A stretch of 64,000 bases of DNA from Carpediemonas membranifera BICM (lineage: Eukaryota; Protista; Fornicata), in the NCBI GenBank assembly GCA_019828565.1, contig JAHDYR010000033.1, positions 155,827 through 219,826 on the forward strand, written 5' to 3'. Below the pieces are notes generated by a model. That model searched no databases. It was given only the letters and a program-made list of their open reading frames with translations, and was not told the origin of the DNA. Made by a program: the position numbers and the translations under genes. Shown in pieces: positions 3,184-46,675 of the stretch (position 1 is the first letter of the stretch; each line of letters opens with the position of its first letter).

Positions 3184-4000
3184 GTGCTTGGCCTGCGATA
3201 ATTACTTGGCGTCCCGTAAAGCCCAAAAATTAATCAAATCGTCATCAAATGCGAATTAAAGATGCTGATATTGCTCATGAAACGACTCTGCTGATCAGCT
3301 GGGACTCTACGCGGCGATATGGCATGGCAAGTCTCTACACTTTGGAGACAATTCGGTCCCATGGTTCCTACCTTGACCCACGTTGTCTCGCGCGCGCGAG
3401 GGACTCACTAAAAGGATATATCAACACTGGGAGCAGAAAAAAGGCACAGCGAGATGCAGGCGCTGTTGCTGAGCTCATTTTCCGGATAAGACCCGTTTTT
3501 GTCACCTCAACCCATTCATATTGGCGGCTGTTGCTTCGTTTTTGATCAAATCAAATGGAAACCAAAACGAGATCCGGGAAACGAGGATGAATGGGAGAGA
3601 TAGACACATCATAAGGTCTTTAATATAGTAATGCACCGTCAATGAGAAGTTCTTGGTTCCTGAAATGGATTATTGATCCCAAACGCTTTTCTTTGAGGAT
3701 AACGCACTTATAGCGGTGATTTCCACACAATTCATCCAAATACTGATCAAAACATCAGAACTGCAAGTAAAATGGGTATAGATCGTTTATCCACGGAGAT
3801 ATCAATTGCTCCCAATCCCAGCTTGCAAGAAAAAAGTTAAGGGGCTGTATTGGGGCTTGCACTGATATCTCTATATATGCCGACACAGTCACTGGGCTGT
3901 CCATCACTGAACAGCTCTAGCCCAATACAAAAACATGAGGGCTCGAAGTTTTGGCCTTCTCGGAAAAGGGTGGCGGAACGCTGCAACACTACAATGCTAA

Positions 4001-4069
4001 TGGACAGAGGGGAGGAAGTGGTCCACTGGTATGTCCTATGGGTCGCTTCTTCCCCTCTGTCCATTTTTT
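4001..4069 (+). other. About 25-bp G:U-containing hairpin followed by a T-run; second copy at 59441-59509
   Basis: tggacagaggggaggaagtggtcca pairs with tgggtcgcttcttcccctctgtcca; then T6. Confidence 0.75.
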
Positions 4070-4145
4070 ACACGATATCGATTTGCCGGATTTGACACAT
4101 GTTGTGCGATCTTTAACTCCTCGCGTCCAACCACCTCTCCCAAAC

Positions 4146-5146
4146 GATCTGCAAGATCGACCAGCCCCTGGATCACTTGGGCCTGCCTCCGTGCCCGGCC
4201 TGTTGCGATCAATGATGGTGATTACTTGCAACGAACGCGATCACCGGAAATTACCTTACCTTACCTTACCTGCAGGTACCATGGGTGTTCGTTTTCGTCT
4301 CCAAACGCCATGGTGTAAGAGCATAAAGTGCATTTTCTGTTTACTGTGCCGTTGGGGATTGATGGCGCTGGCGTAGGGGTGCTGTGTGGGCGCCAGGGAT
4401 GAGGGAGCCAAGATGAGGGCGCCAGGGATGAGGCGCCAGGGATGAGGCGCCAGGGATGAGGCGCCAGGGATGAGGCGCCAGGGATGAGGCGCCAGGGATG
4501 AGGCGCCAGGGATGAGGCGCCAGGATGAGGGAGCCAAGATGAAGGCGCCAGGGATGAGGCGCCAGGGATGAGGCGCCAGGATGAGGGAGCCAAGATGAGG
4601 GCGCCAGGGATGAGGCGCCAGGGATGAGGCGCCAGGATGAGGGAGCCAAGATGAGGGCGCCAGGGATGAGGCGCCAGGATGAGGGAGCCAAGATGAGGGC
4701 GCCAGGGATGAGGCGCCAGGGATGAGGGAGCGATGAGGCGCCAGGGATGAGGCGCCAGGATGAGGGAGCCAAGATGAGGGCGCCAGGGATGAGGCGCCAG
4801 GATGAGGGAGCCAAGATGAAGGCGCCAGGGATGAGGCGCCAGGATGAGGGAGCCAAGATGAGGGCGCCAGGGATGAGGCGCCAGGGATGAGGGAGCCAAG
4901 ATGAGGGCGCCAGGGATGAGGAGTACAGTATTTGAACCCCGAAAACGCCATATTACCAGCACCAATGAGCTTCATCAACGAAGATGCGCTCACTGGTGCC
5001 GGTTATGGCGTTTTCGGGGTTCGTCGATCATTCTGCTCCCAAATCTGCACCTGTATTTTCGTGAGCATGCCCGGGAGCTGGGCCAGACGAGTGGTGCCAC
5101 AGGGACTAAGCTCCGCTGCTCAGCCTCTGCCAGGCGACACTCGTCT
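4146..5146 (+). repeat. Direct copy of unit-1 right-end block (12246-12758) with expanded tandem array
   Basis: Near-identical to 12246-12758 apart from array length. Confidence 0.95.
4389..4921. repeat. Minisatellite of about 14-bp units (gcgccagggatgag / ggagccaagatgag)
   Basis: Directly visible; short versions at about 12488-12532 and 38700-38755. Confidence 0.97.
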
Positions 5147-5284
5147 GAATTCTGCACGAAAAAATTCAGACGACGAATGATGGGCAAAGGGCCGCGAAAA
5201 CGCTGAAGTACCAGCGCAAGTAGAGCGGTTTGCAATAAAATAGCTTACTTGCGCTGGTGCTGGCGTTTTCGGGGCCCTGAATTG

Positions 5285-5670
5285 CCCCGGGCGCTCTCCC
5301 GGGCTTCTCTCTCCCGCGCTCTTCTCCCCCGGACGCTCTCCCGGGCTTCTCTCTCCCGGGCGCTCTCCCGGGCTCCTCTCTCCCGGGCTCCTCTCTCCCG
5401 GGCGCTCTCCCGCGCTCCTCTCTCCCGGGCGCTCTCTCCCGGGCTCCTCTCTCCCGGGCGCTCTCCCGGGCTCCTCTCTCCCGGGCTCCTCTCTCCCGCG
5501 CTCTTCTCCCCCGGGCGCTCTCCCGGGCTCCTCTCTCCCGGGCTCTATCCTCCGGGGCTCCTCTCTCCCGGGCGCTCTCCCGGGCTCCTCTCCCCCGGGC
5601 GCTCTCCCGGGCTCCTCTCTCCCGGGCTCTATCCTCCGGGGCTCCTGTCCCCAGCGCTGTTTCCCAGGCG
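5285..5670. repeat. Minisatellite (gcgctctcccgg / gctcctctctcccgg), diverged inverted relative of the 4389-4921 array
   Basis: Reverse complement unit gagcgcccgggagagaggagccc resembles gggcgccagggatgagggagcca. Confidence 0.93.
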
Positions 5671-6141
5671 CTCTGCTCTCTCCAGCGTCCTCACTCGTAA
5701 ATGTACGTTGCTGTCTTGTCTGCTTGATCTGATTTCATTTAGTGTGCACTTTAGGGGATAATTTCATTGCAACGCCAAAATGGCGAGTTCAGGTTGTAGC
5801 AATGATCTGATGCGCGGAATGTACTAGAAAACATTGCAATTACAACGCAAAGCAGCGAAAAGCGGAGAAATCAACATCAATAACAACATCAACACCAAAA
5901 GAACAGTATCCCAAAGAATTGTGGGCGTTGCTGCGCCAAAGAGCAATAAATGACCACAAAGCATTCGCTTATGCACAATTAGCTGCCAGAAAGAACACTA
6001 CACCGTTACTTTGGATCATCCCAGTTCGCCGGAGATGACGCAGGTCCAGAACGCTGCCTTGGAGGGCTGGTGAAGCGGTTGTGTAGCGCTTACTCGCCTG
6101 GCCTTTGGGGCTCTCTCAACATCCTTCCAGACTACTGCATT

Positions 6142-6565
6142 GTCATTCACCGGAGGAGCAGGCCAGAGTCACTTGCCATCTGGCGCATCATGAGGAGATA
6201 TTGGAATGTGATGATGTGTTTATTGACTAAATGAGCTGGAATTAGGCGGGTTTGATGTTGCTTACATGTTCTGTGGCATGCCTGATGTCCAAAGATGTAT
6301 TTTGGCACAGTGATGTTGTTTAGTGTGCTCATTGCTGACCGCATAGTTATCTGACTTCAATGTGTCGTGTTGATGCCAAGAAATCGATGGTAGCTCGCAC
6401 GTTTGAGGTAGTTGCTTGTTGCATCGATGCAACGCACTTTAAGGATTAAAAAGCTGTACCCCATAGCCGTTTCCTAAGGCCAAATGCGGCCCTCTCTAGC
6501 GTATATACACGCGTGAATTGGGACTAGATGGGACTAGATGGGACTAGATGCAGTGTTGTGGCATG
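6142..6565 (+). repeat. Direct copy of 11833-12246
   Basis: Near-identical sequence; gggactagat x3 here versus x2 at about 12211. Confidence 0.95.
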
Positions 6566-6759
6566 CCCGGTTTAGCTGAATCCACAAATGTGGATCGGCT
6601 CGGGCTGCCGTATAGGTGGCCATGCTTTGAACTTATGGCTGGAGACTGATACAATTGGCAGGTAGTTGACTGCTACGGACGTGCTATGGACAACCGACGG
6701 TATGCCTGTCTGGGCATCAGCGCTGTCGTTCAGGCCAATCCACGTTTGTGGATCCGTGC

Positions 6760-6963
6760 AGTTTATGGTTTCTCGGCCTCCATGCAACAGCCCTGCCTCA
6801 CCATCGGTATCGACGTGTACTGCGGCAAGAACAGCTTCACCCAGGGCGAGGATAACGTCCGCCAGGGTCAGCGCCGCTCCGTCATCGGTATGTCCGCCTG
6901 GTACGTCGAAGAGCAGGGCCACCTTGAGACCGTCAACCGTCCCGTCGAGACCATCGCCCGCTT
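6760..6963 (+). pseudogene. Fragment of an Argonaute/Piwi gene (start of the PIWI RNase H domain)
   Basis: QPCLTIGIDVYCG...RRSVIGMSA matches the PIWI motif P..hhhGhDV.H....SV.Gh.A; strongly C/G-ending codons unlike flanks. Confidence 0.7.
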
Positions 6964-7413
6964 GGCGAGTAAGCGCTACACTACCGCTTCACCAGCCCTC
7001 CAAGGCAGCGTTCTGGACCTGCGTCATCTCCGGCGAACTGGAATGATCCAAAGTAACGGTGTAGTGTTCTTTCTGGCAGCTAATTGTGCATAAGCGAATG
7101 CTTTGTGGTCATTTATTGCTCTTTGGCGCAGCAACGCCCACAACTCTTTGGGATACTGTTCTTTTGGTGTTGATGTTGTTATTGATGTTGATTTCTCCGC
7201 TTTTCGCTGCTTTGCGTTGTAATTGCAATGTTTTCTAGTACATTCCGCGCATCAGATCATTGCTACAACCTGAACTCGCCATTTTGGCGTTGCAATGAAA
7301 CTATCCCCTAAAGTGCACACTAAATGAAATCAGATCAATTTGTGGTCAGCTGCGCCAAGTCGATGGCTTAGTCAGTGTTTGAGTCATTCCCACGACTTAT
7401 TTACTTCGTTCAT

Positions 7414-8730
7414 TTACTTCTGGTGCTTTTCCTGCTCTCTCTTCTCCATCAGGTCGTCATACTCGGCCCTCGTCAGCCTCACAGTTGTCATCCCGGCATC
7501 ACGGATGTGCTCAAAGGCCTCAACAGGCAGCTTCGGCATCCCGTCGTCGCTGTCGCTGCTGCTGCCCAAGTCTGACTCGCTCTCGTGATAGCGGCGAAGG
7601 TGAATGCGTCTGCTGGGCTCCCTGGTCTTCATAGAGTCATAGAGCGGAGCGAGCCCACTTCCATTGGTCCCGCTACGGACACCCTCATCGGTATCTCTCT
7701 CAGACATATCACACTCAACCTGTTGTGACTGAACAAATGACAGGTTGTCGACGAGGCTATCCTCGACATCGCTGTCTGAACTCTCCTCATCCTCCCACTC
7801 TCCTTCCAGCATCTCCAACCCGGCCTCATCGTCAGACTCCCCCTCCCCCGTGTCGTCCCCCTCGGGCTTACGCTGGTCGTGGAGCTGGACCATCCTAATC
7901 CTGAGCTTGTTGTAAAGCCAGTCATCGAGCGTCGGCGGCACCAGGTCGGCAGAGCTTCGGATCTCCGGGTTGAGATCGAGGATCGTTGGGCGTCGCGTGG
8001 TCGTTAAGTGACTGGACGCCAACTGGCGCCTGAACTGCTCATCGGTCAGGCTGATGCGCTTGTCCTTAATGACCTTACGAACCTTGGTCGGATCCCTGGG
8101 CCTGCCCGTCCGTCTCTGTGTCTCAATCACCCGCTTCTTGAGCTGATTGAGATCGACATGCACAGTGGGCGCATAGCGAAGCTGGTTAACACTCAGCCCG
8201 ACCGACTTGAGAGCCTGCGAGAAGGTGCTAGGCATCACAGCGGACATCGCGGATGGTGCCCCGGTGAATAGCAACCAGTCAGCGAGTTCCGGGGGAATCT
8301 GGAGCTCGCTCACATCAATATCGCGGGCTGATGTGGCAGTCATGCCTGTGTGGCTGATGATAAGAGCCAGCGCATTGTAGGGGAAGACTAGTCGGACAAT
8401 AGCTTCCAATGCGACAGGCTCAAACTGCCCAAGCGGCTTGACATTGTCTCTGCCGGAGTTTCGGAATGAGTTGACGGCACTGAGAGTGACAGCAGCGGTT
8501 GCCTTGCTCAACGATGCAGCAAAACCGGGCACAAGCGATCTAACCTCCTCGGACCGGATCACGGAGAGCGCTTCGTCCTCGGTACTCCCTCGCTCACGTT
8601 GTACGAATTGAACGAACCGCGAAAGGTTGTTTGCGGCCGCTTTCCGGGAAGATTTCTTGCTGATGGTGCACAACCAAGCATTCTTCACGTCTTGCATGCT
8701 TGTTTCCATCTCCCGCGGGCTTCCTTCCAT
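7414..8730 (-). CDS. Degenerate tyrosine-recombinase-fold protein with AT-hook and acidic tail (unit 1)
   Basis: Core-binding-like helices (LSKATAAVTLSAVNSF), ALALIISHTGMT (box I, R missing), GLSVNQLRY (box II, H missing), RTGRPR AT-hook, D/E-rich C-terminus; paralogue of 36899-38260. Confidence 0.6.
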   Translation of the reverse strand: MEGSPREMETSMQDVKNAWLCTISKKSSRKAAANNLSRFVQFVQRERGSTEDEALSVIRSEEVRSLVPGFAASLSKATAAVTLSAVNSFRNSGRDNVKPLGQFEPVALEAIVRLVFPYNALALIISHTGMTATSARDIDVSELQIPPELADWLLFTGAPSAMSAVMPSTFSQALKSVGLSVNQLRYAPTVHVDLNQLKKRVIETQRRTGRPRDPTKVRKVIKDKRISLTDEQFRRQLASSHLTTTRRPTILDLNPEIRSSADLVPPTLDDWLYNKLRIRMVQLHDQRKPEGDDTGEGESDDEAGLEMLEGEWEDEESSDSDVEDSLVDNLSFVQSQQVECDMSERDTDEGVRSGTNGSGLAPLYDSMKTREPSRRIHLRRYHESESDLGSSSDSDDGMPKLPVEAFEHIRDAGMTTVRLTRAEYDDLMEKREQEKHQK

Positions 8731-8731
8731 C

Positions 8732-9061
8732 GATATACGGATTTCAGACTTTCGTCATGCACAAAAATTCGAATCTCTCCAAATGCCCAAAACAGTGGTC
8801 AAACCGTGTTCAGGGGTACAAAAGAGTGCCATAGGCACGTTCTTGCATTTCAAAATATTCTAGAGGTCGTTCATAAATTCTCAGATGGCCAACAGTACGA
8901 AAGTCTGAAATCCATTTATCATGAGACCCGACAAATTTGAAATCCATTTATCGGGTGGATACATCACTGTAGAGGGTATTCATGGATATAGGTGCCTTTT
9001 CGGTGCCGAGGGGAGTCAACATTTGAGGTCGTGCAGGCAGAAAGTCTGAAATCCGTATATC
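8732..9061. promoter_or_regulatory. Operator-like repeats upstream of the unit-1 YR-like gene
   Basis: Perfect 22-bp inverted pair gatatacggatttcagactttc (8732-8753 / 9040-9061), extra copy at 8899, partial at 8938. Confidence 0.6.
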
Positions 9062-9185
9062 TCATCACTGCTTATAGATCCTGGCAGACAACGCCTTCCT
9101 GGCGACGTCTGGGGTGTAAGGATTCGCTTGCCTCTGTGTTGTCGCATCAGCTTCGCTGAAAACGGGTGAACTGACCCGCGCATTC

Positions 9186-9637
9186 GCGCACTTTACGCTC
9201 GCAACGAGATTGAAATGGCGAACTTAAGAATAGAAAGAATACTGGCGGCTTTAACGTAGTAGGCATGTGCACAACACTAAGAAACATCAGTTGGCGGGCG
9301 CAGAGCATCATTAAAGCAACAATTATCTCTAAACGACATCAAGTACCAAAAGTCCATCATGATCATACGATATGAACTATAAATGAACTACAGATCAGTA
9401 TATATGATTTGAGAGTACCAGGCATGGCCAAAATACCGCAATACTCGTCCTTTGATCCACGTGACCTCCATCTTGGTCGGTATCCAGAGAACCTCCGTCA
9501 GACGCTTGCAACGGAACATTTAGGGGGAGCATCCTGAATGGGGCCAGATTTGAGGGACCCTTGGTCTGACATGTCATGACCGAGTACTCTAGGGGCCTCC
9601 ACAGTGCGTCCCGAGGTACGTTAGAGCACCACAGACC
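9186..9637. promoter_or_regulatory. Conserved non-coding core, copy 1
   Basis: Homologous to 35987-36437 (inverted) and 46676-47080; 37 bp invariant at 9455-9491. Confidence 0.8.
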
Positions 9638-9964
9638 TTCCCCCAAAAGCTGACTCCTGGACCCCTTGGCCGGAGCTCGCCCGAAGCGTGCCTCGGCTTG
9701 AACTAACGGCAAGAGAGCATAAAATCAGCCCTTTCGAACCGTGTTTTATGCTCTGCTGCAGTTATAGAATTATTCAAAGGGCCCTCTCTTTGCGCTTTTT
9801 TCTGGTTCGTGGGACGAAGTAGGGACGGACAAAAAAGCAGATACGGAAGGTATTGGAGGTAATGAGGCCGCCTAGGTACATAGTTGCCATGTGGATGGTT
9901 TCAGTTTATTACTTTTGGCACTCTATGTCCATTTTTTTATGCTCTCTTGCTGATAGTGCCGAAC

Positions 9965-11717
9965 ATGGACTTGCTAAAGTGGATTGAGAGCGCTAGCAAG
10001 GAACAGTACGATGCGATATTGGCTGCATACACCAAGGCAACCACCAATCATGCCAAATGTGCTGTCCTTCGCGCGGTTTTGCTGGATGAACGGAAACTGC
10101 TCGATCTAGTCATCAGGAAGCGTTTGTAGTCATAGCAATGCTTATATAGGAATCAACCTGAACCATATCACCACGAAATTCCGCCTCACGAAGAACGAGA
10201 AGGAGGAGCTCCATGATAAGTTGAAGAAGCAGTTTATGGCACTCGCCGGACCAAGAAGTTCCAAGAAGCTCGGCGCGCTGGCGAAGTGGGTTGACGACAA
10301 CCAGGCTGATATCGTGTATAGCAAGGAGAAGCGCAAGGCGCGTAAGGCCATTATTGAGGCCATTGACGCCGAGGAGAAGGACAAGGGCAAGGGCAAGGCC
10401 GAGAGCGCTAAGAAAGAACCCGTCGACGATGAGAGTGGCGTGGACAGTGGTGAAGAGAGCGGCGTCGACGATTCTGAGTTGTGCGACAGTGAGAGTGAGG
10501 TGGACTTTGACAACGAGTCCGACGATGAGATTAGAGAACGCGCGATCAAGCGCCGGCGCGAGAGAAAGATCGCCCAGAAGCTCAAGGAGTGGGAGGACAA
10601 TAACGCTCGCAACTACGTCCTGTGGCATAGAGTCCAGAAGGAGGTGCACGGCGAGCTTCGCATTCGCGCCTCTCGAGAGTCAGCTTCGGTTGCTGGGGAC
10701 AACCACGTCGACGTCCAGTTCGACAGATACCTTCGCGTATCCAAGCTGCTCGAAATGAAGGACTGGATTCACAAAGACCTCCCATCTCTTCCGATGGAGG
10801 CACGAGTGCTCCATCACAAGGCGCAGAAGAGAGTACTCGAGCTGGAGGAGACCGTCACGAGGCTGCTGCAAGACGTGGGGTACGCAGCTGACATCTCCAT
10901 GGGTGCCAGCCCGACACCCGCGCCGTTTCGCCGCGACCTACCCCAGTCGGGCACACACCAAGCACGAACGAGTACCCCCCGCCGTACGGGGAAGAGCGAC
11001 ACAATCCACATGAAGCGCAAGGCCCTCATGACAATCCCTCAGAAGATCGCTGATGTCGATAGCAACTCAGAGGAGTCAGACGAGGAGGAGATGGTGACAG
11101 AGGAGAAGAAGCGCGAGGCACACGAGGAGGTGGTGACAGAGGAGAGGAAGGGTGAGTCACATGAGGAGGACGTGACCAAATGCGACGCCTGCATCCAGAC
11201 TGAGCCGGAGACTCAGACTCGCATCACCTCTGAGGCCGCGGTGCAGACGTGCATCAACGCGGAGGCTCTCACGGCTGGCTGTACCGCGATTCATGTCAAG
11301 AGTGACGGCAACTGCGTTGCATATTGTCTCCAAGCCATTGAGTTGGGTGGCCGAGTTGATGGCGACTTCGAAAAGTGGCAGCGTGGCCTCTGCCAGTCAG
11401 TGAAGGCCAAGTACTGGTCTAAGAAGAATTTCACGGAGCGTAGCCTGACAGATCCGGACTCCGGCTACTATAACTCGAACGCCATCCGAGTCTGGGCGAG
11501 GAAACAGAAGCGGAACATCCTTGTTGTCCAGTCATACGACGGATACAACGGCATGCAAGGCATCTCCGCCATCTTATACCTGTTTGATGGCACCACCATG
11601 CTTGCACCCGATGCAGACTTGTGGGGGTTGACAGATAATTTCGCTATTGTCATCGAAGGCGATCCGGCTCACGCCACGCTGTACCAGAAGAAGTGCGAGG
11701 TCGTTGAGATTGAATAA
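9965..11717 (+). CDS. OTU-like cysteine protease/deubiquitinase with coiled-coil and acidic N-region (unit 1); intron 10122-10149
   Basis: VKSDGNCVAYCL and distal IVIEGDPAHATLY; removing the 28-nt GT..AG intron joins ORF 9965 to ORF 10221 in frame. Confidence 0.75.
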
Positions 11718-11832
11718 AGATTTGGATATGCCCGTGTAGCCAGCGGTTCATGACCTGCAGCAGACATTTGGACGTACAGCGGGATACCACATCAATTAGG
11801 TCACTTGCGGGCTAAGATTGTCGTTGTCGATC

Positions 11833-12758
11833 GTCATTCACCGGAGGAGCAGGCCAGAGTCACTTGCCATCTGGCGCATCATGAGGAGATATTGGAATGT
11901 GATGATGTGTTTATTGACTAAATGAGCTGGAATTAGGCGGGTTTGATGTTGCTTACATGTTCTGTGGCATGCCTGATGTCCAAAGATGTATTTTGGCACA
12001 GTGATGTTGTTTAGTGTGCTCATTGCTGACCGCATAGTTATCTGACTTCAATGTGTCGTGTTGATGGCAAGAAATCGATGGTAGCTCGCACGTTTGAGGT
12101 AGTTGCTTGTTGCATCGATGCAACGCACTTTAAGGATTAACCACCTGCACCCCATAGCCGTTTCCTAAGGCCAGATACGGTCCTCTGTAGCGTATATACA
12201 CGCGTGAATTGGGACTAGATGGGACTAGATGCAGTGTTGTGGCATGATCTGCCAGATCGACCAGCCCCTGGATCACTTGGGCCTGCCTCCGTGCCCGGCC
12301 TGTTGCGATCAATGATGGTGATTACTTGCAACGAACGCGATCACCGGAAATTACCTTACCTTACCTTACCTGCAGGTACCATGGGTGTTCGTTTTCGTCT
12401 CCAAACGCCATGGTGTAAGAGCATAAAGTGCATTTTCTGTTTACTGTGCCGTTGGGGATTGATGGCGCTGGCGTAGGGGTGCTGTGTGGGCGCCAGGGAT
12501 GACGGCGCCAGGATGAGGGCGCCAGGGATGAGGAGTACAGTATTTGAACCCCGAAAACGCCATATTACCAGCACCAATGAGCTTCATCAACGAAGATGCG
12601 CTCACTGGTGCCGGTTATGGCGTTTTCGGGGTTCGTCGATCATTCTGCTCCCAAATCTGCACCTGTATTTTCGTGAGCATGCCCGGGAGCTGGGCCAGAC
12701 GAGTGGTGCCACAGGGACTAAGCTCCGCTGCTCAGCCTCTGCCAGGCGACACTCGTCT
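11833..12758 (+). repeat. Unit-1 right-end block (short array plus hairpins)
   Basis: Duplicated in two pieces at 6142-6565 and 4146-5146. Confidence 0.9.
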
Positions 12759-12759
12759 C

Positions 12760-13287
12760 AATCATCTCAGCGACGTTGGCACCGTTGACTGACGAAGCTT
12801 GCATTGCACGCGTGGAGTCAACGGACATAGTGGGCTGCTCAGCGGTCTGAACAGTGGGGTGGGGGGTGGGGACGGCAGGATTGCGGCGCGGCTGGCACAC
12901 CCGGAAGGCTCTTTGGGAGCTGTCGAGCTTGGAATTTCGCAAATGATCAATTTCAGCGTCAGTGAGGGTTACAAGCTGGCTGAGTCCGGCTATCAATGCG
13001 GCACGCCCTGTATCTGTCGCGTGAATTCCTTGGTAGATGCCCTTCGTGTTAGGAGAGAGTTTGCGGCCAGCAAGGTTCTCGATAGCCTTGGGTACTGACC
13101 TCATGAAGTCCTACTTGCGCGGCATGCGCTCTAGAATAGTTTTTGGGAGGATTGCAAGGATTGCATCCGCGATGGAGCGACAATCGCATTTCGTGCTTCT
13201 CTCTTCCCAACGATAGCATGTTGCGATGATTGTGTGCACAATATCACGCACAGTATCTCTTGAAAGCCGCTCCTGGTCTTCTACCAT
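12760..13287 (-). pseudogene. Truncated gene, possibly N-terminal homologue of the PHD proteins at 39981 and 51000
   Basis: ATG 13287, one in-frame TAG near 13111, cut by the 12758 block; weak similarity RDIVHTIIATCY..CRSIADAIL versus RSFVTAVVSSVF..ARDIHKVL. Confidence 0.4.
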
Positions 13288-13341
13288 ACTGCCCCCCTTT
13301 TGTGGGGGTGTAAAAAAACTGAGTGCAGTTTTAAGTTGGAA

Positions 13342-13557
13342 ATGGAATCCTACAGGTATAGAGACTATTACGAAGAGATAGGAACCGTTATAGCTGCAAT
13401 TGATGCAATATTAGCACATCCAGGACTGTGGGCGGTAGCAGAGCGTGTTGGAATGGATAGATTAGCAAGAGCGAAGGACTTACTCAATATAGAGCAAGAA
13501 AGGGCCAAATGCGGGATTCCGCCATCAAGTTCAGAAGAGTACAGTGATTCACAGTAA
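13342..13557 (+). CDS. Small helical hypothetical protein
   Basis: 71-aa ORF divergent from the 12760-13287 gene, same arrangement as 52319-52534. Confidence 0.4.
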   Translation: MESYRYRDYYEEIGTVIAAIDAILAHPGLWAVAERVGMDRLARAKDLLNIEQERAKCGIPPSSSEEYSDSQ

Positions 13558-14088
13558 ACCGTAGCGATCTATTGAGTTATATTCAGTTCTGGCCATGTTC
13601 GGCTTTTCCGGAATGTCAAAAATTTGACACGTCCATTTCTCCAAATTGCTGATTGCCAACGCTAGACCAGACATGCCAGGCTGTAGTACACGTGCTATAC
13701 TACAACGTGGTGGTTCTGGTTTGCCGTTGGCAATCAGCAATTTCGAGAACAGACAAACTTCTTTTGCGATTTTTGCAACTTCTGGAGCATATATCATTTG
13801 GTACAGACCCAGCCACGCAATAAAAACGCATAGCGTGGCTTACCATGGTCGGAACTATCCTAAAAAAGTTTGCGGTAAATATTGAGTAAATATTTAATAT
13901 AGATCTCGAGATTTAACGTCCCTTAGGTAGCCCTTGGATGCAAACATCCGCCCAGTAAATTTCGCTGTACAGCTCTAGCCCAAGACAAAAATATGAGGGC
14001 TCGAAGTTTTGGCCTTCTCAGAAAAAGGTGGCAGTATACTGCTACTTTTCTTTGCTTGAGTAGCTGTATTACACCCCCTCCAGACAGC

Positions 14089-14637
14089 ATGACAGCTGAG
14101 GGAGCCCTCCTGGCGCTGAAGCGCACTCGAGAGCCGGGTGCCACGGTCTCTCGTGATGTGGTGGTGGACCTCCTCAAGCGCGTGGTGATGGCAGGCCGAC
14201 ACCCAGCCATGTTCTCGCTGCTTATGGCGGCTGAGAACCGCGGTGCCTCGCGCCTGACCGCCACCCGCTCCCGCGACTTCGTTCGGGCCTATTGGACCTG
14301 TGTCCGGCTTGAGCATCTCCCGGCTATGGAGCTTGCCATGAACAAGGAGCTGTTCACGCTCCAGCTCACGGACACGTCCGCCGCGTACGGTGTGGTGGAG
14401 GTCAAAGAGCACATCGAGCTCTACGAGAACGCCCGCCAGGAGGAGTCGTTCATCCTGCTCGTCCAGTTTTCGGGCTATCCGCTGCCGTCACTGACCTTCC
14501 TGACCCAGGATCTTTGCCGCACCATGCCTGTCACTCGTTATCTCAACGAGCATAACTTATGGCGTCGTGTTCGTCGGCGCTGGGAGCATGACGGCATCTT
14601 CTTTGAGCTTGGTGACAGCCTTGGTGCCATTGAATAA
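14089..14637 (+). CDS. Protein with C-terminal chromodomain-like region
   Basis: AYGVVEVKEH...FILLVQFSGYPLPSLTF resembles Y.VE.I..H...YLVKW.GY....TW; GC3-rich codons. Confidence 0.55.
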   Translation: MTAEGALLALKRTREPGATVSRDVVVDLLKRVVMAGRHPAMFSLLMAAENRGASRLTATRSRDFVRAYWTCVRLEHLPAMELAMNKELFTLQLTDTSAAYGVVEVKEHIELYENARQEESFILLVQFSGYPLPSLTFLTQDLCRTMPVTRYLNEHNLWRRVRRRWEHDGIFFELGDSLGAIE

Positions 14638-14666
14638 ATCAGATTGTGACTCTCTCTGGGCGCCAT

Positions 14667-17600
14667 TTACTTGGCCCTTCCCAGGAATACATCCAGTGCT
14701 TCACAACCCTTGACATTCCCATATGGTTCCCATGTGTCCTCTGACGGCTCATATCCCAGCCATCTAACCCGGAACTTCCTGTCTCTCATCCTGGCCTCAC
14801 TCGTCGACTCTAGTATGGACTCGACCAGATATTCACCGAGCGTGACTGCCGCGAGTTCCTGAGCCCGTTGCTCGGACAACTCACCCATAAAGGCGCGAAC
14901 TCTCCGAGGCGACTTGGAACTCCTTCTTTGTGTTGACATCCTTGACGACATAGCCCACCGTGAGGTTCTGCCTCACGATAGGACGCACTAGCTTCATAGG
15001 CCCTCGCCATCCTGACGCCAACTTGGACGGCGGTCCATTCGGGTACTTGACCAACACATAGTCGGACGAGATAGGTGTCGTTGCTGACACTTTGTCTAGC
15101 GCATCTTGGTGCATGACCTTGATTCTCGCCTCTGCCAAGTCTCGGGCTAACTGAGCTGCTTGAACATTACTGCTGGGCTGTCCAGCCATACTCTGGACGT
15201 CTGCCATCATCACGTCTGCCGGGACACGGAAATCGCTACCGAAGATGACCTCGGCCGGTGTTAAGCGTGTCGCGGTGTGGGGAGACGCGTTGACGATATA
15301 CTGCGCGACAGGGAGGGAGTCTGACCACAACTCGCTCCGAAGCTGGTATTGCCTGTTGCGTAAAATGCGCTCAATGCGGCTGTTCGCCCGTTCCACAATG
15401 CCGTTTGACTGTGGATGGTACGGGGTGGTGACGTGAGTAGCAAACCCTACGCGCACCGATAGATCTGTGAATAGCTTGTTGACGAACTGCTTGCCACCGT
15501 CTGTCTGTAGAACTCTGGGCACGCCGTACCGGAGAATCCATCCGTTGACGAAGGCAGTCACAGCTTCGTCCGCCCTTGTGGACTTGAGTGGGACGAGCTC
15601 GGTCCACCGCGAGGCCATATCAATAATAACTAAGATGAACTTGTACCCGCGAGACTCTGGTAGGGGGCCAATAGTATCCATGGCTACCCACTGGAACGGT
15701 CGCAGGCTCGCCGTGTGGAGGTACGGTCTGGACGCCTCGGCCGGCTTGGCGGTAAGTTGGCACACGGGGCAACGATCCATGACCCGCGCTACCCTATCCA
15801 CTGGAGCCCGGAGCCCGTTAGATCTCAGCCACTCTACCGTCGTATAAACCGGGAGGTGGGCCTGGCCGTGCATATGAGCTGCCTGGATCTCGTCATCGGT
15901 AGCTGTTGCCTGTCTGGCAGTTGCGGAGAAGACTCGACTCAGCCCGTCCGCCGCTCCGTTGTCAACCCCGGCCACATGCTTCACTGTGAAGTCTAGGTCT
16001 GCGATTGACTCGTACCAACGCTGGACTTTTTGCGTTAGACGATCGTGACATGTAGACCAGGTTCCGGTGGTCAGTGAGGAGAGTAAACGACGTCCAGCAC
16101 AGGAAACGGCGCCACCTCTGGAGGGCGGTGACAATCGCATACGCTTCCTGTTCGATCGTGCTCCAACGCGTCTGCACATCTGAGAACGCGTGGGACATAT
16201 AACACACCGGCTTGCCGTCCTGGAGGAGAACACCCCCGATCCCGAGATCAGACGCGTCTGTCATGACCACATGATCCTTCGAAACGTCAAAGTGCTCGAG
16301 TGCCGGTGCGTGGCAGAGGCGGTCCTTAACCTTGGCCAGCGCCTCTGCCTGAGGTAATCCGTCCGGAGCCTCCTTGCCGCTTGCCGCCCGGGCTAACGGT
16401 CGGATAAGCTCGGAGAAGTTAGGAACAAAGTCTCTCATAAAGTTGAGGAATCCCATAAGGGCCTGCGTGGCCTTCTTCGTCTTCGGTAGCCGCAGGCCTT
16501 CTACATCGCGGATCCTGTCTGGAGCAATCCGGAAACCCGAGCCGGACACAACCCATCCTAGGAACTCCACTTCGGCTAGGCCGAAATGCGACTTCTCCTT
16601 GTTCAACGATAGCTTGAGCTCGTCACATCGGCGGAGCACCTTAGCGAGATTGGCCAGATATTCCTGCTCCGAGCGTCCAAAGATGATAATGTCATCTATA
16701 TATATAATGCAGGCGTCGCCTAAGAGGTCCTGGAACCCGCGCTCAATCGCGTACTGAAAGTGCGCGCCAGCGTTCTTCAGGCCGAACGGCATTCCGGTGT
16801 ATTGGAACTTCCCACGGGGGTCATAAACGCCGTGTATTGCCTAGAACGCTCGGTCAGCTCGACCTGGTGATACCCTTTCGAGAGGTCGAGAGTGGCGAAG
16901 ACCTTGGCACCAGCAAGCCTGGTCAAGCACGTGTTAACCTCGGGGATCGGATAGTCGAATGGCGTGGTCAAATCATTGATTCTGCGGAAGTCTACGACCA
17001 TCCTGGTCTTGTCCTTGCCCTTGGGGACGAGCAATGCTGGAGAAGAGTATGGCGAGAAGCTGGCCTCGATGTATTTCTTCGACAGTAGTTCGTTGACGTG
17101 CTCGTCGAACAGGCCCTGCTTCTGGTACGGTATGTAATTGGATCTCGTGGCGACGACGCGGTCCTCCTTGAGTACGAGGTCGTATGGCTCTAATGCTGAG
17201 AACCCTTCTCGAGCATCAAAGCAATGAGCATAAGCTGCGAGGATGCGGTCATGAGTGAGAGTGTAGTCCGAAGACAGAGTATACGCCTGGAGCGGCTCAG
17301 GCTCTGGCACGAAAGGCTCCAAGGCGTCTTCATTGTCAGACTGAGACGGTTCACACAAGCTGGGGAGAATACCCCACTCGACCATGGTCTGATATGACAA
17401 GAGGAGATCATAAGCACAGTCAACCCCATACGCGGAGACTGTGGTGGATAGACCTTTCGGGGTGAAAGGTGACTTACACATCTTCAACGGCACCTCATAA
17501 CACGTATCAGTCTCGATCGTTCCACCCGGAGTCTTGATCTTAATGGGTGCAGCGAGCTTCGTCGGAATGAGCTCGGCCGCTCTGGCGGAAGCCGGGTTGA

Positions 17601-18755
17601 CAAGAGAAATGTCAGCACCACAGTCGAATAAGACACGGTGCCATGTGGTAGATTCGTCGCTACCCATAGGGACGACGGCACTCACGACGGGTAGGGAGCG
17701 CTGGCCTTCAGCCGCCGACGTAGAAACAGAGACAGAGAAGCATGATCTGGGGTTTACCTGACAGAACTTGTCTAGGTGCCCCGACTTGCCGCACTTCGCG
17801 CACACGGCCTTCTCTCTGGTGCATTCGAAAGCGCGGTGGTTCGGCCTGCCGCAGTTAAAGCATACGATGTCTCGCTGGTGACCGTGGTGTTGCGTCTGCT
17901 GCTGACGCTGACCGTGACGTTGGCCTTGCTGGTGGAAGTGCGTCTGATACTGGCGGGGCTGGTGTTGCTGCCGCTTGTCTTGGCGCGGCTGATCCTGAGG
18001 CTCGCGCTGCTCACGCGGGGGGCGTTTGCGGACAGCGGACTGCTTAGAGCGTTCGCGCTCTTGAGCAGGGGCAGGCTTGGACGTTGAAGTGAGCTTGATT
18101 GCTTCCTCCAGACGCTTACATGTCAGGAGGGCGGTCGAAAAGGTCGCATCAAGTGACAGACCCTTGGAGGCGTGAGAAACCTCCTCTCTGAGCGTTTCGT
18201 CTTGGATTCCGCGCAAAAACTGGCCGCGAAGGACTGAATCCTTGCCCGTGGGTGCAATGAGACGGCGGCGGGAAGCGAAGCGGTCGATATAGAGAGATAG
18301 GCGGCCAATATCGATACCAGTGGTCGATAGGTCGAAAAGGCGGCGCTCAAGGATCGCATCGGAGGGCTTAACAATGTCCACAATCGCCTGGAATACGATG
18401 TCCTCGCGTTCGTGCTTCGTTCTTTTGGAGCCATCATCGTGATGTTTTGCGGCCTGATACTTTCTGGTAATATCAGTACCCATCGCCTTGCAGTATGAGG
18501 TCACCGCGGGTCCGAGTCGCTTAAGCAAGCGCCTCTTTCCGCCCGCGCGAACATGCTTATCCAATTTCTCGGCAAATGAGAGGACTGCGTGAATCTCAGG
18601 CTGTGTACATAAAGGTCCCTTATCCATTAGTTTGGAAGTAAGCTTACTGTGATCACTAAGGAAAAAGACTTTACAAAGAGAGCTCGACACAAGGGTGTCG
18701 AGCTGGACGGATCAAGACCGTATCAAATACGTATCTCATATATAAATGGCTGACA
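14667..18755 (-). mobile_element. Ty3/Gypsy chromovirus A (gag-PR-RT-RH-IN-chromo), frameshifted; 5' LTR present, 3' LTR not found
   Basis: Two CCHC knuckles, LFDCGA, LDLSKGYHQ, YIDD, TDASD, DTIGP/TDGG/VER, EYLVESI..VRWLGY..DTWEP. Confidence 0.96.
18696..18755 (-). repeat. 60-bp 5' LTR of element A
   Basis: TGTC..GACA termini; abuts the DLSKAFHQ codons of element B; similar to 25782-25837. Confidence 0.8.
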
Positions 18756-21003
18756 GACCTATCCAAAGCGTTCCACCAGATCATAATCAACCAGGACTCG
18801 CGCAAGTATACCGCTTTTGTGGCTGGTGGGAAGAAATACCAGTATAAGCGGATGCCCTTTGGGCTTCGTAATGCTCCCATCCACTGCCAGAAAGCCATGG
18901 AACACATTCTGGGTCAATCCCTTTATACTCAGTGTCTCGCTTACATAGATGACATTGTCGTCTTTGGAGCGAACCGTGACGAGTTCCTGAAGAATCTGGA
19001 GGACGTGTTAGCTCGCATCCACGCGGCCGGTCTGAAGCTTAATCCTTCCAAGACGGTCATTGGAGCGACTTCCATCGACTATTTGGGCTGGCGAGTAGAC
19101 AAGGACGGTAAGCGGATCTCCCCCGACCGTCTGGAGGCCATCCATGATCTCAAGGAGCCGACTAGTCTGACGGACGCCCGAGCCTTGCTCGGGTTCGCGA
19201 ACTACTTTCGAGCACTCATTGAGCGTTACGTCGATATGACTGAACCCATCACCGAGCTCACCCGAGCCGCCGAAAAGTTCGTTTGGGGCGACCGACAACA
19301 TGACGCGTTTGAGCAGATTAAGCGAGAGCTTCTACTGCAGCGCACGCTGGTCCACCCCTGTCCCGACGAACATCTCCACATTTTTACGGACGCATCAGAC
19401 TACGGCATTGGTGGCGTGCTGATGAACGCGGAGTTTAAGCCCATCGCGTTCTTCGCCAAGACGCTCACGCCCCAACAGCGCCGTTGGTCTACGATAGAGA
19501 AAGAGTGCTACGCTCTGTACTTCGGTACTACCAAGTTCAGACGCTATCTCGCTGGACGAGACTTCACAGCTCATCTAGATCACCGTAACTTGGTCTACAT
19601 GGACCGTTCCTTGAATTCCAAGGTGATTAGATGGAGCCTCGCGCTGTCTGAGTACTCATTCGACATCGTACACGTTCCAGGTTCCGACAACTCTGTAGCG
19701 GACACCCTGTCCCGCCTCGTTCACCTGGACGAGACCTCCGTCGAACCTTCCCCTCCACCCGAGGCGCATCGGGAATCCTTCCAAGAAGCACATGGCGGAG
19801 ATGCTGGTCACCTTGGCCGTGATGCCACCTGCAAACGCATCATAGCCGCCGACAAGGGCTGGCCTGGCATGCGCCGGGACGTTACTGCCTGGATAAGACA
19901 GTGCCCTGTTTGCCAGTTGACACGCCTCAAGCTTTCACCGTTTCCCCAAGCGACCCATCCCATGACCGGCAGCCGACCCTTCGAAGTAGTGGAGGCCGAC
20001 ACCATTGGTCCCCTCTCACTGCCCGGGCAACACCGCTACGCGGTTGTGATTATCGACACGTTTACTAGACTCACCCAAGCCTACCCCCACGAAGAGCACG
20101 GACGCTGTATCTGCACGTTCGGCTTTATCGACATGGATGAAACACTATGGCTCCCCGACATGTTTGATTACCGATGGTGGCTCACAGTACCATAACAGAA
20201 CCATCAGAGAATTTTGCCAAGACCACGGTATAAGACACGAGATCGGTACGCCTTATCATCCTGCGGGACAGGGTGCTGTTGAAAGAGCGAACAAAGAGGT
20301 GAAGAGACACCTACGCGCCTGGATTCTCGAACATGACGACGACTGGGAGGACGCCTTACCACGAATCACGAATATAATCAACAACGCACCTCTAACGGCC
20401 TCCAACCTGTCGCCGTACGAAGTCCTATACGCCAGGGACGTTCACGAACCGACTAGACAACCTTCCCTCACCGTCGACCACTTTCGTACCACCCTACGCT
20501 GTTTACAGAGCAGACAACGCGCTGTCGGTGGCCAAACTCCAGCGCAGAGCCATCCAGCGAGTCATCTCCTTGGATCCGCCGCCATGATCCAGCGCAAAAC
20601 TGCCATAGGCATCGTACCCCGGGGCCCGGTCCGGGTAATCTCCACCAATCCCGACCGCCCCAACACCTACGTCGTTCAAGACCTCACCACTGACCACCGC
20701 CTGACAGTACATGCCTCTGAGCTTTACCAGTTCGAGGGCAGCTACACTGACGCTGAGCTCAAACACTGGGCAGCCCGCAACGAAGGAGAGTACGTGGTTA
20801 GGAAGGTTGCTGACCATCGCCGACAAGCGGGCAACCTTCAGTTCCTCCTCTTGTGGGAGGGCTACGATGACGACGAAGGCACATGGACCGATTACAGCCG
20901 CGAAATCGATGGATTAGCTGCCCTGGACGCATACATTAATGAGCATCCGAGATTGAAGCTTCCATCGCTCAGGAAGGGACGCCACGCCGGTAAATCCCCC
21001 TGA
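18756..21003 (+). mobile_element. Ty3/Gypsy chromovirus B, 5'-truncated pol (RT-RH-IN-chromo)
   Basis: DLSKAFHQ, MPFGL, YIDD, TDASD, DTIGP, TDGG, EYVVRKV..LWEGY..GTW; one frameshift near 20090. Confidence 0.95.
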
Positions 21004-21143
21004 GACGTGTGCTGTTGATGTTGTTTGATGAAGAAAGAAGAGAAGAAGAGGAAAAGTGATTGCAATCACGAGGATAATGATAATGAACGCAAATGATCAC
21101 CTAAGAGAGAGAGAGAGAGCGTGAACTCGCCGAAACGAACTAA

Positions 21144-24100
21144 TGTGCCCTTAACCTGCGGAATTCGTAAAACAGTCTTTATCATATTTCTGGGCCCTAG
21201 CACGGCACAGTATCGATACTGCCGATTCAAATGAAGACTCTTACAATTGACACCCCGTTCGCCGTCGAGAGAGCACTCCAGGAGTACCTCTCGGCGATGC
21301 CCCACGAGAAGAATCCAATTTCGTTCTTTAGGGCATTGTCCCCCGAGACAACAGAAAAACTTCGCGCCCAGTGGCGCCCAACCACTCTTTTTGACACTTT
21401 CGAGGACCTACAACGAACCGTTCTGTCCGATTCCGATGCTCGCCGCGCGGCGAACACAAGCTCTGCCAGTACTGCGGCACGAGCCCGTACAACGAAGACC
21501 GACAACCTCACCGCCATCTGGGTAGAGGAGGTACAGAAGACCATAAGAAAAGCCACGTTCGCCGCCTGTAGCGAGTGTGCAGCTAAGCACAAGGACCCCA
21601 CCCTGACAGCAATGACCCGGGAGTGCCTTGAAGCTCAACATCCCCAGATACTGACTGACTGCGGCAAGAAGGCCCGCGACTTCTTCACCCAGCTGACCGA
21701 CGACCACGACATCGCAAACGTCGAGACAGTCGCACGGCCTGGCAACCTGACCGGCCCGGACGGCGAAGACGTCTCGGTGGCGTTCGTGTACATGCCCCCA
21801 GTGCCCGAGGAGACCAAGCCCGCCCCCTCCTCGGCGGCTTGGCCAGTCTTCGATGGCGGGGACGTCTACGCTTTCCTCGCCAAGGAGGCGACCTCCATCG
21901 CCCCCTACCTCGCATATACCCTCTTGACTAGTACGGACCCGGGCGCAAGAGCCAAGCTCCTCAAGGCAAAGCTCGACAACATCACGCTATACGGTCCGGA
22001 GCCCCGGCACCGAACGGCCGTCGAGAAGGCACGTAAGCTCATAAGCGCCCTCAACCCAGACATCAAGGACGTCCCCACCATCTCCGCAAAACTGCTCGAG
22101 CGGATCATTCGGGACTTCGCCACTAGAGGTTTCTCCAAAGAAGCCGAGGATGTATACGAAGAAGAGATTGAGGACTACTCCGACAAGATCAGCGAACTTC
22201 TCGACAAACTACGCGACTTGGATGTTGATCACGACGAGAACATCATTATCCCATGGCGTGCCTTCAGACTCGCCAGCCCACAAGCCGACAACAACGAGCA
22301 GGCGTCGGGCACTTCAGGCAGGAAGCCGCTCGCTCGCAGGCTCGATGGTCGCGATCCGTTCCAGCAGTTCAGGGACAAGACCAAGTTCCGCATGCCTCCT
22401 TCCCACACGAGATACTGCACACAGCATGGCTGGAACCCGCACCACGAGACGAAGGACTGCAGGTTCCTCATCAGACGGGAGGCTTACAAGGCCCAAGAAC
22501 GCCAGCCACAGACCGAGAAGCGTCAGGAACGCAGACCCGAAGAGCGGCAAAAGCAGCCCGGCAACCGCGCACGCCCTGTGGCGCCCACCAGTCACCAACA
22601 GTCGGATCGCCGGGCCGGCCGCATGGACCTCCGCCCCTCGTCTACCCTGAAGAACCCCCGCCGCGTCGATGAGGTGTTTGACGCGGATGAAGCGTCTCAT
22701 TCGGAGTTGGAGAACGAAGTCTACGAGATCGAGGACATCATACTCGACAAGGACCCGGTGAAGGTCCCGGCTGTTATCAACGGCCAGCACATGAACGTCA
22801 AGTTCGACATCGGCGCTTGCACGTCGGTCATATCAGCCCCTGCCCTCGCAGCGATCCCCCGACGTGACCCTGATACCGACCTCAGTCGAACTTCTCGGCG
22901 CTGGGGACGATATCATCTCCACTGGCAAAGCCGCCAAGGTCTCGCTGACCCTCCCCAGTGTCGACGGAAAGACCGTGACCACCACTGCGTTGCTCATGGT
23001 CACGAAGGGCCAGAGGAAGAAGGTCCTCATTGGACGCGATTTGCTCCGCCGCCTCGGCTTCCTGCTGAACGACCGGCTACTAATACCGTCCGCTGACCCG
23101 ATCGATGACGACGACGGCCTGGGACAGCACCCCTACCTCGACTCGACAACAGAAGAAGTCGACCCCGAGGAAGAGTGGCGCAAGGTTAAGCTGCCGACCG
23201 AAGAGAACCCGGAGCTGGCTGCCTGGCTGACCGACTTCCTTCGCGAGCGCAAGGCCGTGTTTGGCCCTCTACCTCCGGATGGCAGCAGGATGCCGCCACA
23301 CGAGATCGTCGTCGATCCAAGCCGCCCTACACCCAGGGCCCGACCCAGGCCGTTGAAGGGTGACCCGGGAAACTCAGCCCTCGCGGAGATCGACAAGATG
23401 CTCAACCAGGGCGTGATCCGAGAGAGTCAAAGTCCGCACTCTAGCCCGCACGTCATGGCAAAGAAGAAGAGCGGCGAAGACCGCTTCTGCATCGCTTACA
23501 ACGTCTTGAACAACGCCACCATCGACGACCTGTACCCCACGCCGGACATCCGATCGTTTGTACACGAGGCGAGCGGATGCTCCGTGTTCGCGGCGCTCGA
23601 CCTGCGCAGCGGATACTGGCAGCAGAACATGGCAACCGATAGCATCCCGCTCACCGCATTCACCGTCCCGGGCGGGCATTACGAGTTCTTACGTACACCA
23701 TTCGGGCTGAAGAACGCCCCAGCAAAGTTCCAGCGAGCCATGGACGAGATGCTCGCTGGTATCGACGGTTCGAGAGCCTATATCGACGATATCTTTGCGT
23801 ACGCCCGCTCCATTCAGGATTTCAAGTCGACCCTCACCCAGATCTTCGACCAGTTGGAAGCTTACGATATCAAACTCCGCGCCGACAAGTGTGCCATTGG
23901 CATGAAGGAGGTTGAAGTCTGTGGGTTTATAGTCAACGAGTCTGGCAGGTCGGTTTCCCCTCACGTATCGCAGCCATCCAGGACCTCACACCCCCAACGA
24001 CGACAACGGAGCTGCGCCGCACGCTAGGCAAGTTCAACTATCTGTCAAACTATATCCCACACCTCGCCCACGCATCAGCCCCGCTCAACGCCCTCCTAAA

Positions 24101-25382
24101 GGGATCGCCGCAGAAGTCGGCCCCCCTCGATTGGACTGCCACTGAGGACGAAGCATTCGCCCGTATGAAGACCCTAGTAGCCGAGCACACCGCCCTCGCG
24201 CTCCCAGACCTGAGTGCAAAGTGGACTCTCGAGACCGACGCATCGTCGACCGCCATCGGTGGTGTACTGTGGCAGGGCGAGGGTGACGAGAAGGTCCCAC
24301 TCGCCTTCTACAGCAAGACCCTCGACGAGACCCAGCAACGGTGGTCCACGGTGGAACAGGAGCTTTTCGCCATTGTCTATTGTGTAACGCGACCAGAGTT
24401 TTCCCCCCTCTTCAAGCTGAAGCCGTTCGAGCTTCGCACGGACCATCGTAATCTGATATGGCTACTCAGGAAGACAGACGAGGACGGCACTAAGAAACTG
24501 ACACGATGGCGACTCACCATGACAGAGTATCCGTATAACGTCACACACATAGCTGGAGCGCAGAACCTCGTAGCCGACGCACTGTCGCGGCCATCATCTC
24601 AGCGCAAGAACGAGGTGCGCCGCTCGATCGACCACGTCACCACGACGCGCCAAGAGCAGATCACCAGGGCGCACGCCGGTGCACAGGGCCACGTCGGCCC
24701 AGACCAGACCATCGCCAATCTGAAGCAGTCCGGTGTCACGTGGCCAGGCATGTCGGATGACGTCCGCGCGACCTTACGCCAGTGTCCAATCTGTCGCAAG
24801 ACAAAGCCAGCCCGCAAGGAGCCGATCAAGTGGCACTCTACTCAGCGCATCCGCCCATTCGAGACGGTGCAGGTGGACACCATTGGCCCTTTGCCCGAGA
24901 GAGACGGTCTCAAGTACGTCATCACGGTGGTGGACGTGTTCTCGAAGTTCACCATATTGAAGCCCACACGGTCAACGAGCGCAGCCGAGGCAGCAGCCGC
25001 ATTGCTGGAGATCTGGGCGACTTTCGGCGTCCCGGCCGAGCTCCAGTCTGACCAAGGTACACAGTTCAGGAATGCCCTAGTCGAGGAGATGAACGAGCGA
25101 CTGAGCCTCAAGCACCGGTTCAGTACGGCATATCATCCGGCCAGCAACGGCGTAGTCGAACGCCTGAATGGTACCGTCATGAGACGCTTAAGAGCGCTCC
25201 TGCTGGACGCCCGCGACGACAACTGGCCCGCATACCTGCCCATCGCCCAGCACGTTATCAACGCCACCCGCCACTCCACCACAGGCCTCAGCCCCTTCGA
25301 ACTATTGTTCGGACGCAAGTCAACCATGCTGCGCGTCGCGCCCGACGCCCTGACCAACGCAACCCAGATGCTCGAGCACTGA
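21144..25382 (+). mobile_element. Ty3/Gypsy element D (66-bp 5' LTR 21144-21209, gag-PR-RT-RH-IN), 3'-truncated
   Basis: LTR tgtgcc..ggcaca; CHHC knuckle, FDIGA, LDLRSGYWQ, YIDD, TDAS, DTIGP/SDQG; frameshifts near 22860 and 23960. Confidence 0.95.
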
Positions 25383-25837
25383 GCCCGGCTCGAGCATCTG
25401 GGTCGTTAGCTGGAAAAGACGGCGCTCTAGGATCGGATCAGTGGGCTTAATTGCGTTAGCAATCGCTCTGAAAACGAGGTCCTCTCTCTCATGTTTCTTA
25501 CGCTTCTCGCCCGTCACTGTGTTGTGCTTCGCGCTCTTGTATGTCTTGGCTACGTCTATACCAACTGCTGCACAGTATGAGGTGACAGCCGGACCCAAAC
25601 GCTTGATAAGTCGGCGTTTTCCGCCCGTTCGGACATGGCGTTCGAGTTTCTCCTTAAACGAAAGCAGAGCATTAATCTCTGGTTGAGTACATAACGGACC
25701 CTTGTCCTCAGTCATTGTAAGTAACGTTACTGTGGGTTCGTGAGAACAAAGCTTTACAAAGAATAGAGCTCGACACCCATGTGTCGAGCTGGACGACTCA
25801 AGACCTACCTATTAAATAATCTATTGATGAACCAACA
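25383..25837 (-). mobile_element. Ty3/Gypsy fragment E (56-bp LTR 25782-25837 plus gag N-terminus), close relative of A
   Basis: DKGPLCTQPEI..GGKRRL.KRLGPAVTSYC shared with A gag. Confidence 0.9.
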
Positions 25838-41265: not shown

Positions 41266-41455
41266 TCCAGAGTAGATTTTCTACTAAAAATTGGCATTGT
41301 TACAACCAATCATTAACATTAATAGAGAAGGAGAATAAAGACTCACCAGCCCGCGGCCAATCGTGACTCAGGTTCGCATCAGACGTCGACAGAGACGAGT
41401 TAAACATGAGGCTGGGCAATTGTCTTCTGAGCTAATCCTTAACCTTTCAAAGAGG

Positions 41456-46661: not shown

Positions 46662-46675
46662 AACGTTTCTTCAAG

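Follow-up and report, generated by a model that had tools for sequence, protein, structure and literature searches.

A captured and amplified Piwi gene fragment in a foldback element of Carpediemonas membranifera and its possible role as antisense RNA

We analyzed a 64-kb window of the Carpediemonas membranifera genome, the term window referring throughout to this whole stretch of DNA. It is a transposon nest, with Ty3/gypsy-type reverse transcriptase (RT), RNase H, and integrase open reading frames (ORFs), tyrosine-recombinase-like ORFs, and a SET gene (family in 11 of 38 ORFs scanned). Within it, two inverted arms enclose 865 nt to form a foldback unit (Table 1). The near-perfect foldback with 375-bp arms described from the sequence alone is confirmed: the arms match at 371 of 375 positions, with mismatches at left-arm positions 5761, 5918, 6020, and 6080, and folding of the whole unit is predicted to pair 370 of the 375 arm bases. 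A GC-rich satellite (5285-5646) lies to the left of the unit. To the right, after 72 nt, comes the stop of a gene (7414-8730) that diverges from its other copies in the window at 7411.

Table 1. Components of the foldback unit and of three related units in the 64-kb window (positions are those of the window).
Feature	Position	Strand	Remarks
Left inverted arm	5724..6098	+	375 nt; no protein or RNA family match
40 nt with no second occurrence in the window	6099..6138	+	Joined to the left arm in run contigs too
Repeat segment	6139..6565	+	95% identity to 11830-12246; first 300 nt 99%
Mosaic filler	6566..6775	.	Between repeat segment and Piwi piece
Captured Piwi piece	6776..6961	+	186 nt, 62 codons, corresponding to P0001 residues 562-623
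31-nt stretch identical to the P0002 gene	6874..6904	+	Inside the Piwi piece; donor differs at 3 silent sites
Right inverted arm	6964..7338	-	375 nt; inward reading would enter the Piwi piece antisense (orientation from sequence)
Chimeric ORF, 135 aa	6686..7093	+	Filler + Piwi piece + arm; annotated hypothetical protein P0022
Related unit 1 (gene / module / divergent gene)	7414-8754 / 9188-9636 / 10110-11717	- / / +	
Related unit 2 (gene / module / divergent gene)	36848-38260 / 35987-36435 / 34046-35721	+ / / -	
Related unit 3 (gene / module / divergent gene)	45975-46670 / 46678-47100 / 47783-48724	- / / +	

At least three unrelated segments are patched together in the loop. The filler of the loop includes a stretch (6701-6748) that occurs in run contigs with different flanks and another (6749-6778) that is similar, in inverted orientation, to 38365-38394 and 39461-39490 (27/30), along with a weak self-inverted pair near 6578/6755 (E 0.17). 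The unit interior holds short ORFs only, and a six-frame search of 5724-7410 matched only the repeat at 11830-12288 and none of the RT or recombinase genes of the window. A 65-aa ORF at 6147-6344 is identical to one at 11838-12035, so finding this ORF on another contig does not signify a copy of the whole element. The fold of 5821-6218 was no better than shuffled sequences (z -0.15), which argues against a structured RNA. An Rfam search of 4000-14000 gave no matches, nor did a comparison of the start of the arm with metagenome contigs. At 6208-6309, a contig joins up between 6-nt direct repeats into a circle or tandem unit of 102 nt, and the same is seen at 11899-12000.

The sequence-only reading had recognized about 200 bp encoding the first catalytic strand of a PIWI domain beside the right arm. 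We find a piece of 186 nt that ends 2 nt short of that arm and contains the first catalytic aspartate (D574), terminating two codons before the catalytic glutamate (E625). A Pfam test of the fragment had been suggested; it returned no family, either with 6650-6961 as query (E<=0.01) or with 6776-6961 (E<=1), and there was no PDB match to the piece at E<=1. Since the piece alone matches neither, its Piwi identity comes through the parent gene, which had also been proposed as a check and which exists: 56 of the 62 residues are identical to P0001 (E 1e-27; 1 match among 338 candidates), an 823-aa protein named "Piwi domain [Carpediemonas membranifera]." P0001 itself matches Pfam Piwi (E 7e-38), and its best relatives of solved structure are Piwi-clade proteins (E 2e-24). 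A donor contig of 2,423 nt, present in runs X1 and X2, spans exactly 6776-6961 with 168 of 186 bases the same, 18 differences, and no gap. Its unaligned ends translate to the P0001 residues flanking the piece, so both capture boundaries are sharp. Piwi homology extending upstream of 6776 or into the arm can be discarded, as the donor contig diverges at both ends. What was captured is thus 62 of 823 donor residues with one tetrad residue only, and a complete PAZ-MID-PIWI protein with its catalytic tetrad is absent.

We found two Piwi proteins for C. membranifera (2 of 21 matches), P0001 and P0002, which are 48% identical. The available text of PMC8516963 gives the species 8,300 predicted proteins and a 24-Mb genome, with Helitron-like genes present. 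The two proteins differ at the active site. Pfam PAZ has no match in P0001. Read against the Piwi catalytic tetrad, P0001 has D574-E625-D660-S797 (D-E-D-S) and P0002 has the full D-E-D-H tetrad; one host Piwi, the donor, thus lacks the last catalytic residue. Both are represented by mRNA-sized contigs (2,423 and 2,404 nt versus 823 and 801 codons), the unaligned ends of the 2,404-nt contig translating to P0002. Because both are present as near full-length contigs, neither gene appears to be shut off.

The fragment is not confined to this locus. The 90% cluster of the 135-aa P0022 comprises 7 sequences at 12 annotated contig places (3+4+1+1+1+1+1) on at least 5 different contigs, these counts being of annotated ORFs that cover 6686/6782-7093 only, i.e., the piece plus the 130 nt of the right arm nearest to it. 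Five cluster members carry a name, and all are hypothetical proteins of C. membranifera. All seven sequences, each of which we examined, exit Piwi at the same residue and then run into the arm. This shared Piwi-arm junction indicates one capture followed by amplification, and the element, to judge from these ORF sequences, is an amplified family. An eighth sequence, P0023, has only 4 Piwi codons left before the arm. Some copies are clustered, with locus tags 4992 and 4999 on one contig and two accessions three apart on another. The right neighbor gene (7414-8730) did not spread along, as its cluster in the annotation has a single member. No longer or diverged copies appeared among 14 candidates of 80-258 aa, and relatives of the chimeric protein outside C. 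membranifera were absent among the 14 and 338 candidates and from the 50% library. P0024-P0027 were set aside as copies because they are repetitive proteins matching in many short stretches. Exact look-ups of window ORFs found 2 of 10 and 4 of 10.

To which class does the element belong? It has long terminal inverted repeats and a host coding fragment whose parent gene exists, both hallmarks of Pack-TYPE transposons, the group in which the sequence-only reading had placed it. That placement is not supported as it stands. No exact 2-15 nt repeat was found at offsets -6 to +4 of the outer ends, where the best pairs have 3/8, 4/9, and 4/10 mismatches; target-site duplications of MULEs measure 8-11 bp. 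Short palindromes within the arms mimic a duplication and might be one (4 nt at offset 6, 2 nt at 18, and 6 nt at 26). Nothing else in the 64-kb window matches the arm at E<5, and so neither an autonomous partner nor a second element with these ends is present there. Lacking a target-site duplication at its outer ends and an autonomous partner in the window, the element is Pack-like and is not filed in any family. DIRS1-like elements are defined by an internal complementary region that matches the outer ends (PMC3266345, PMC7192593). In all six comparisons, scores for such a region were 7-10, against shuffle maxima of 10-11, and the short ORFs and a six-frame search gave no Gag, RT/RNase H, or recombinase, nor remnants of them, between the repeats. 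A DIRS1-like tyrosine-recombinase retrotransposon, which should have both, is therefore ruled out. The arm may be akin to the modules at 9188-9636 and 35987-36435: its pairwise scores were above 300 of 300 shuffles for two of three modules, with no profile match.

Several other features of the window deserve mention. Three related units each consist of a gene, a conserved noncoding module, and a divergent gene (Table 1). The divergent gene has what we take to be an OTU-protease-like motif, the first gene scores 0.92-0.93 for resemblance to phage-integrase-type proteins, and the units are possibly Crypton-like elements. An 8-base motif occurs 11 times versus 1.6 expected (about 7 independent) at the edges of several repeat modules, with sites at 5746, 6434, 7316, 9188, 12125, 12431, 4331, 36435, and 46678, including one 22 nt inside each arm; it could be a promoter element or a recombination core. 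A 14-base satellite (4389-4921) has 38 copies, and contig depth reaches the thousands at a short copy (12488-12533); it is either very abundant or strongly transcribed. An ORF pair at 41339-43980 (+) has no Pfam match, and language-model features liken its middle part to RAG1/Transib-type transposases (0.95-0.97), which we treat as a lead only; a palindrome (44748-44900) adjoins it. At 48755-52244, the SET gene sits beside a PHD-like gene and a gene that, from its motif, is presumably caspase-like. The latter two are multicopy and adjacent elsewhere as well (tags 3911/3912 and 4980/4981), and the three may be chromatin-related cargo of a large element. Tyrosine-recombinase-like ORFs at 26314-27813, 52688-54793, and 55764-58355 (weak matches), one of them fused behind RNase H, are putative DIRS-order retrotransposons.

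Is the captured piece still a protein? Two residues that are invariant in all nine intact Piwis aligned, P565 and H577, are altered in every one of the seven copy sequences, as is the aromatic F614, and in 2 of 7 the catalytic D574 has become histidine. In six of the seven, the chimeric frame runs uninterrupted across piece and arm; in the other it is frame-shifted near its end. Because Piwi-invariant residues are changed in every copy and D574 in two, the piece appears not to be kept as protein and is probably dead in that role.

The differences between copy and donor lean toward silent ones. Relative to the donor contig, 7 of the 11 listed differences are silent. For all 18, with the 7 unlisted ones inferred from proteins, the ratio is ~11 silent to 7 replacing, or 9:9 in the worst case, and dN/dS is 0.15-0.34. 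Such an excess would be consistent with silent substitutions in the host gene. If the donor stayed as it was and the copy evolved neutrally, the excess has a P of 0.0005-0.03; under a neutral model with equal time on both branches, P is 0.02-0.06 (11:7) or 0.13-0.27 (9:9), so the excess is not robust. The 31-nt stretch matches the P0002 contig at 31 of 31 positions; the donor contig has substitutions there at 6883, 6889, and 6898, all silent, and its longest perfect run with the piece, within the middle part whose differences are listed in full, measures 20 nt. Codon bias alone would produce a 31-nt match with a probability of 2e-4 to 2e-2. Only three silent sites can be polarized, and all three differ in the donor and not in the copy. 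Either these donor sites changed after the capture, or conversion took place between the paralogs or with the copy; paralog conversion or strong codon bias accounts for the match equally well. Whatever the origin of the match, an antisense guide made from these 31 nt would be fully complementary to the mRNA of P0002, the full-tetrad paralog.

The contigs come from four runs (X1-X4) of at most two samples, none recorded as RNA and all without strand or level, and X1 and X2 may be one data set, as their depths are identical on most contigs. In X1, a contig of 398 nt (377 nt in X2) spans the left arm-loop junction between 5821 and 6218. It has two of the three left-arm variants of its span and may derive from a further copy or reflect an assembly error. 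The mRNA-sized Piwi contigs hint that the runs are RNA and, together with the arm-loop contig, that the arm is transcribed. Contig coverage of 7339-27000 (8 of 30 bins in X1 and X2, 3 in X3, 1 in X4) is a weak hint that X1 and X2 are RNA. No contig carries the window's own Piwi version, the 6961-6964 join, or 6324-6683, which is neutral evidence because contigs drop rare forms.

The reading that we favor, if narrowly, makes the element a source of antisense RNA. In this scenario, a non-autonomous mobile element would have captured the Piwi piece once, perhaps by template switching, and then spread, presumably as a whole 1.6-kb mobile unit. The arms would act as inward promoters, and transcription from the right arm would cover the Piwi piece, in antisense, within some 280 nt. 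The piece would likely act as RNA, not protein: if the antisense RNA were processed into small RNAs, these could pair with both Piwi mRNAs, and the pairing might weaken silencing of the element. We regard inward reading from the right arm, with antisense small RNAs against host Piwi as its product, as quite possible, though short of probable. The small RNAs had been proposed earlier to come from a hairpin, with spreading into the loop. That route is unsupported in this form, as no transcript across both arms was found and a simpler one exists: spreading could be dispensed with, since inward reading would give antisense Piwi RNA directly. A stronger version, itself a subset of the antisense reading, would make the foldback a natural RNAi cassette against the two host Piwis, favored for this effect, with the donor escaping by silent substitutions; we consider it doubtful. 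Scanning many windows will also bring some Piwi captures by chance.

Nearly as likely as the antisense reading is that the piece is an inert passenger, taken up by a non-autonomous element through template switching during repair, and that the spread of the element was unrelated to it. The mosaic loop of at least three unrelated pieces is what such uptake would leave behind. The P0023 place, which retains only 4 Piwi codons beside the arm, points the same way, as do other repeats of these nests that lack Piwi and are similarly numerous (clusters of 5 and 6 sequences). An inert piece explains less readily why, among about 8,300 genes, the donor should be one of the two for Piwi, why 31 nt inside the piece match the other paralog perfectly, and why three of three polarizable silent sites differ in the donor rather than the copy.

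We think it improbable that block duplication or recombination among transposon nests multiplied the Piwi-arm junction, with the foldback a recent local inversion and no transposition of its own. Break-induced replication has been proposed for this lineage (PMC8516963, in the text available), and the missing target-site duplication is in keeping with such a process, as is the divergence of only 1% between the arms versus 10% between piece and donor. On one contig, three copies are spaced over some 10 locus tags (4992/4999), beside the gene pair 4980/4981 shared with the window, and the neighbor gene is severed from its other copies 3 nt past its stop, at 7411. However, the immediate right neighbor is single in the annotation, and the left arm-loop junction recurs in run contigs with two of three left-arm variants, as a further copy or an assembly error would leave it. 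Least credible of all is a chimeric protein of 103-135 residues that interferes with Piwi: in its favor, 6 of 7 copies keep an uninterrupted frame across piece and arm, the frame is annotated as a gene, and nonsynonymous change is low, but the Piwi-invariant residues are lost in 7 of 7, one frame is shifted near its end, no relative occurs outside the species (14 and 338 candidates, 50% library), and 62 residues of one strand region are too little to form a PIWI domain.

Returning to the antisense reading, the nearest parallels are in Drosophila. There, telomeric elements have made at least nine captures, eight of them of piRNA genes (piwi/aub among the sources), of 140-235 bp at a median identity of about 90%; antisense piRNAs are produced, and the host region changes twofold faster (PMC13534243, in the parts available). 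The capture of nxf2 by a Drosophila telomeric retrotransposon is the TART-nxf2 case (PMC7785250). Like these, the C. membranifera element is multicopy and holds a short Piwi-family piece, 186 bp at 90%, with signs that the host copy may have changed silently. Unlike them, it belongs to a metamonad protist and is a DNA foldback that lacks coding capacity, whereas theirs are non-LTR telomeric retrotransposons; it is known from sequence alone, and its single piece can pair with either of the two paralogs. Pack-TYPE and Pack-MULE elements, as defined in the portions of PMC8903248 at hand, were described from plants. The foldback shares with Pack-TYPE elements its non-autonomous nature, long inverted ends, a host coding piece amid mixed internal segments, and, for the piece with the inner right arm, several copies, and it departs from them in having no target-site duplication, known terminal motif, or autonomous partner found. 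In Dictyostelium, a gene piece between opposed DIRS-1 repeats, which act as inward promoters, silences the gene in trans (PMC4482531), and DIRS elements lack target-site duplications (PMC3266345). Our element likewise sets a gene piece between two opposed long repeats and has no such duplication. The DIRS-1 cassette was engineered, with proven promoters and a trigger of about 400 bp, whereas the foldback is natural, with putative promoters and no internal complementary region.

In the literature searched, subscription journals aside, we found nothing on Carpediemonas Piwi or on this element. The word piwi is absent from the available text of PMC8516963, and piwi, argonaute, and dicer are absent from its 10 supplementary files, a picture-only file aside; as far as its accessible part goes, bioRxiv 10.64898/2026.05.21.726589 mentions C. 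membranifera for methyltransferases only. Within the same literature, targeted capture of Piwi-pathway genes by transposons is known only from Drosophila telomeric elements. To the sequence-only reading, the present analysis adds an amplified family and matches to each of the two Piwi genes. Some dozen annotated "hypothetical proteins" in this species would be transposon-borne Piwi debris. If the piece is a passenger, this is ordinary gene-fragment capture. The host Piwi is likely an anti-transposon defense, and a cultured free-living protist in which only two Piwi genes were found offers a test of how general counter-defense is. If the stronger version of the antisense reading, with a favored cassette and an escaping donor, proves true, the same arms race as at Drosophila telomeres would have evolved independently across the eukaryotic tree.
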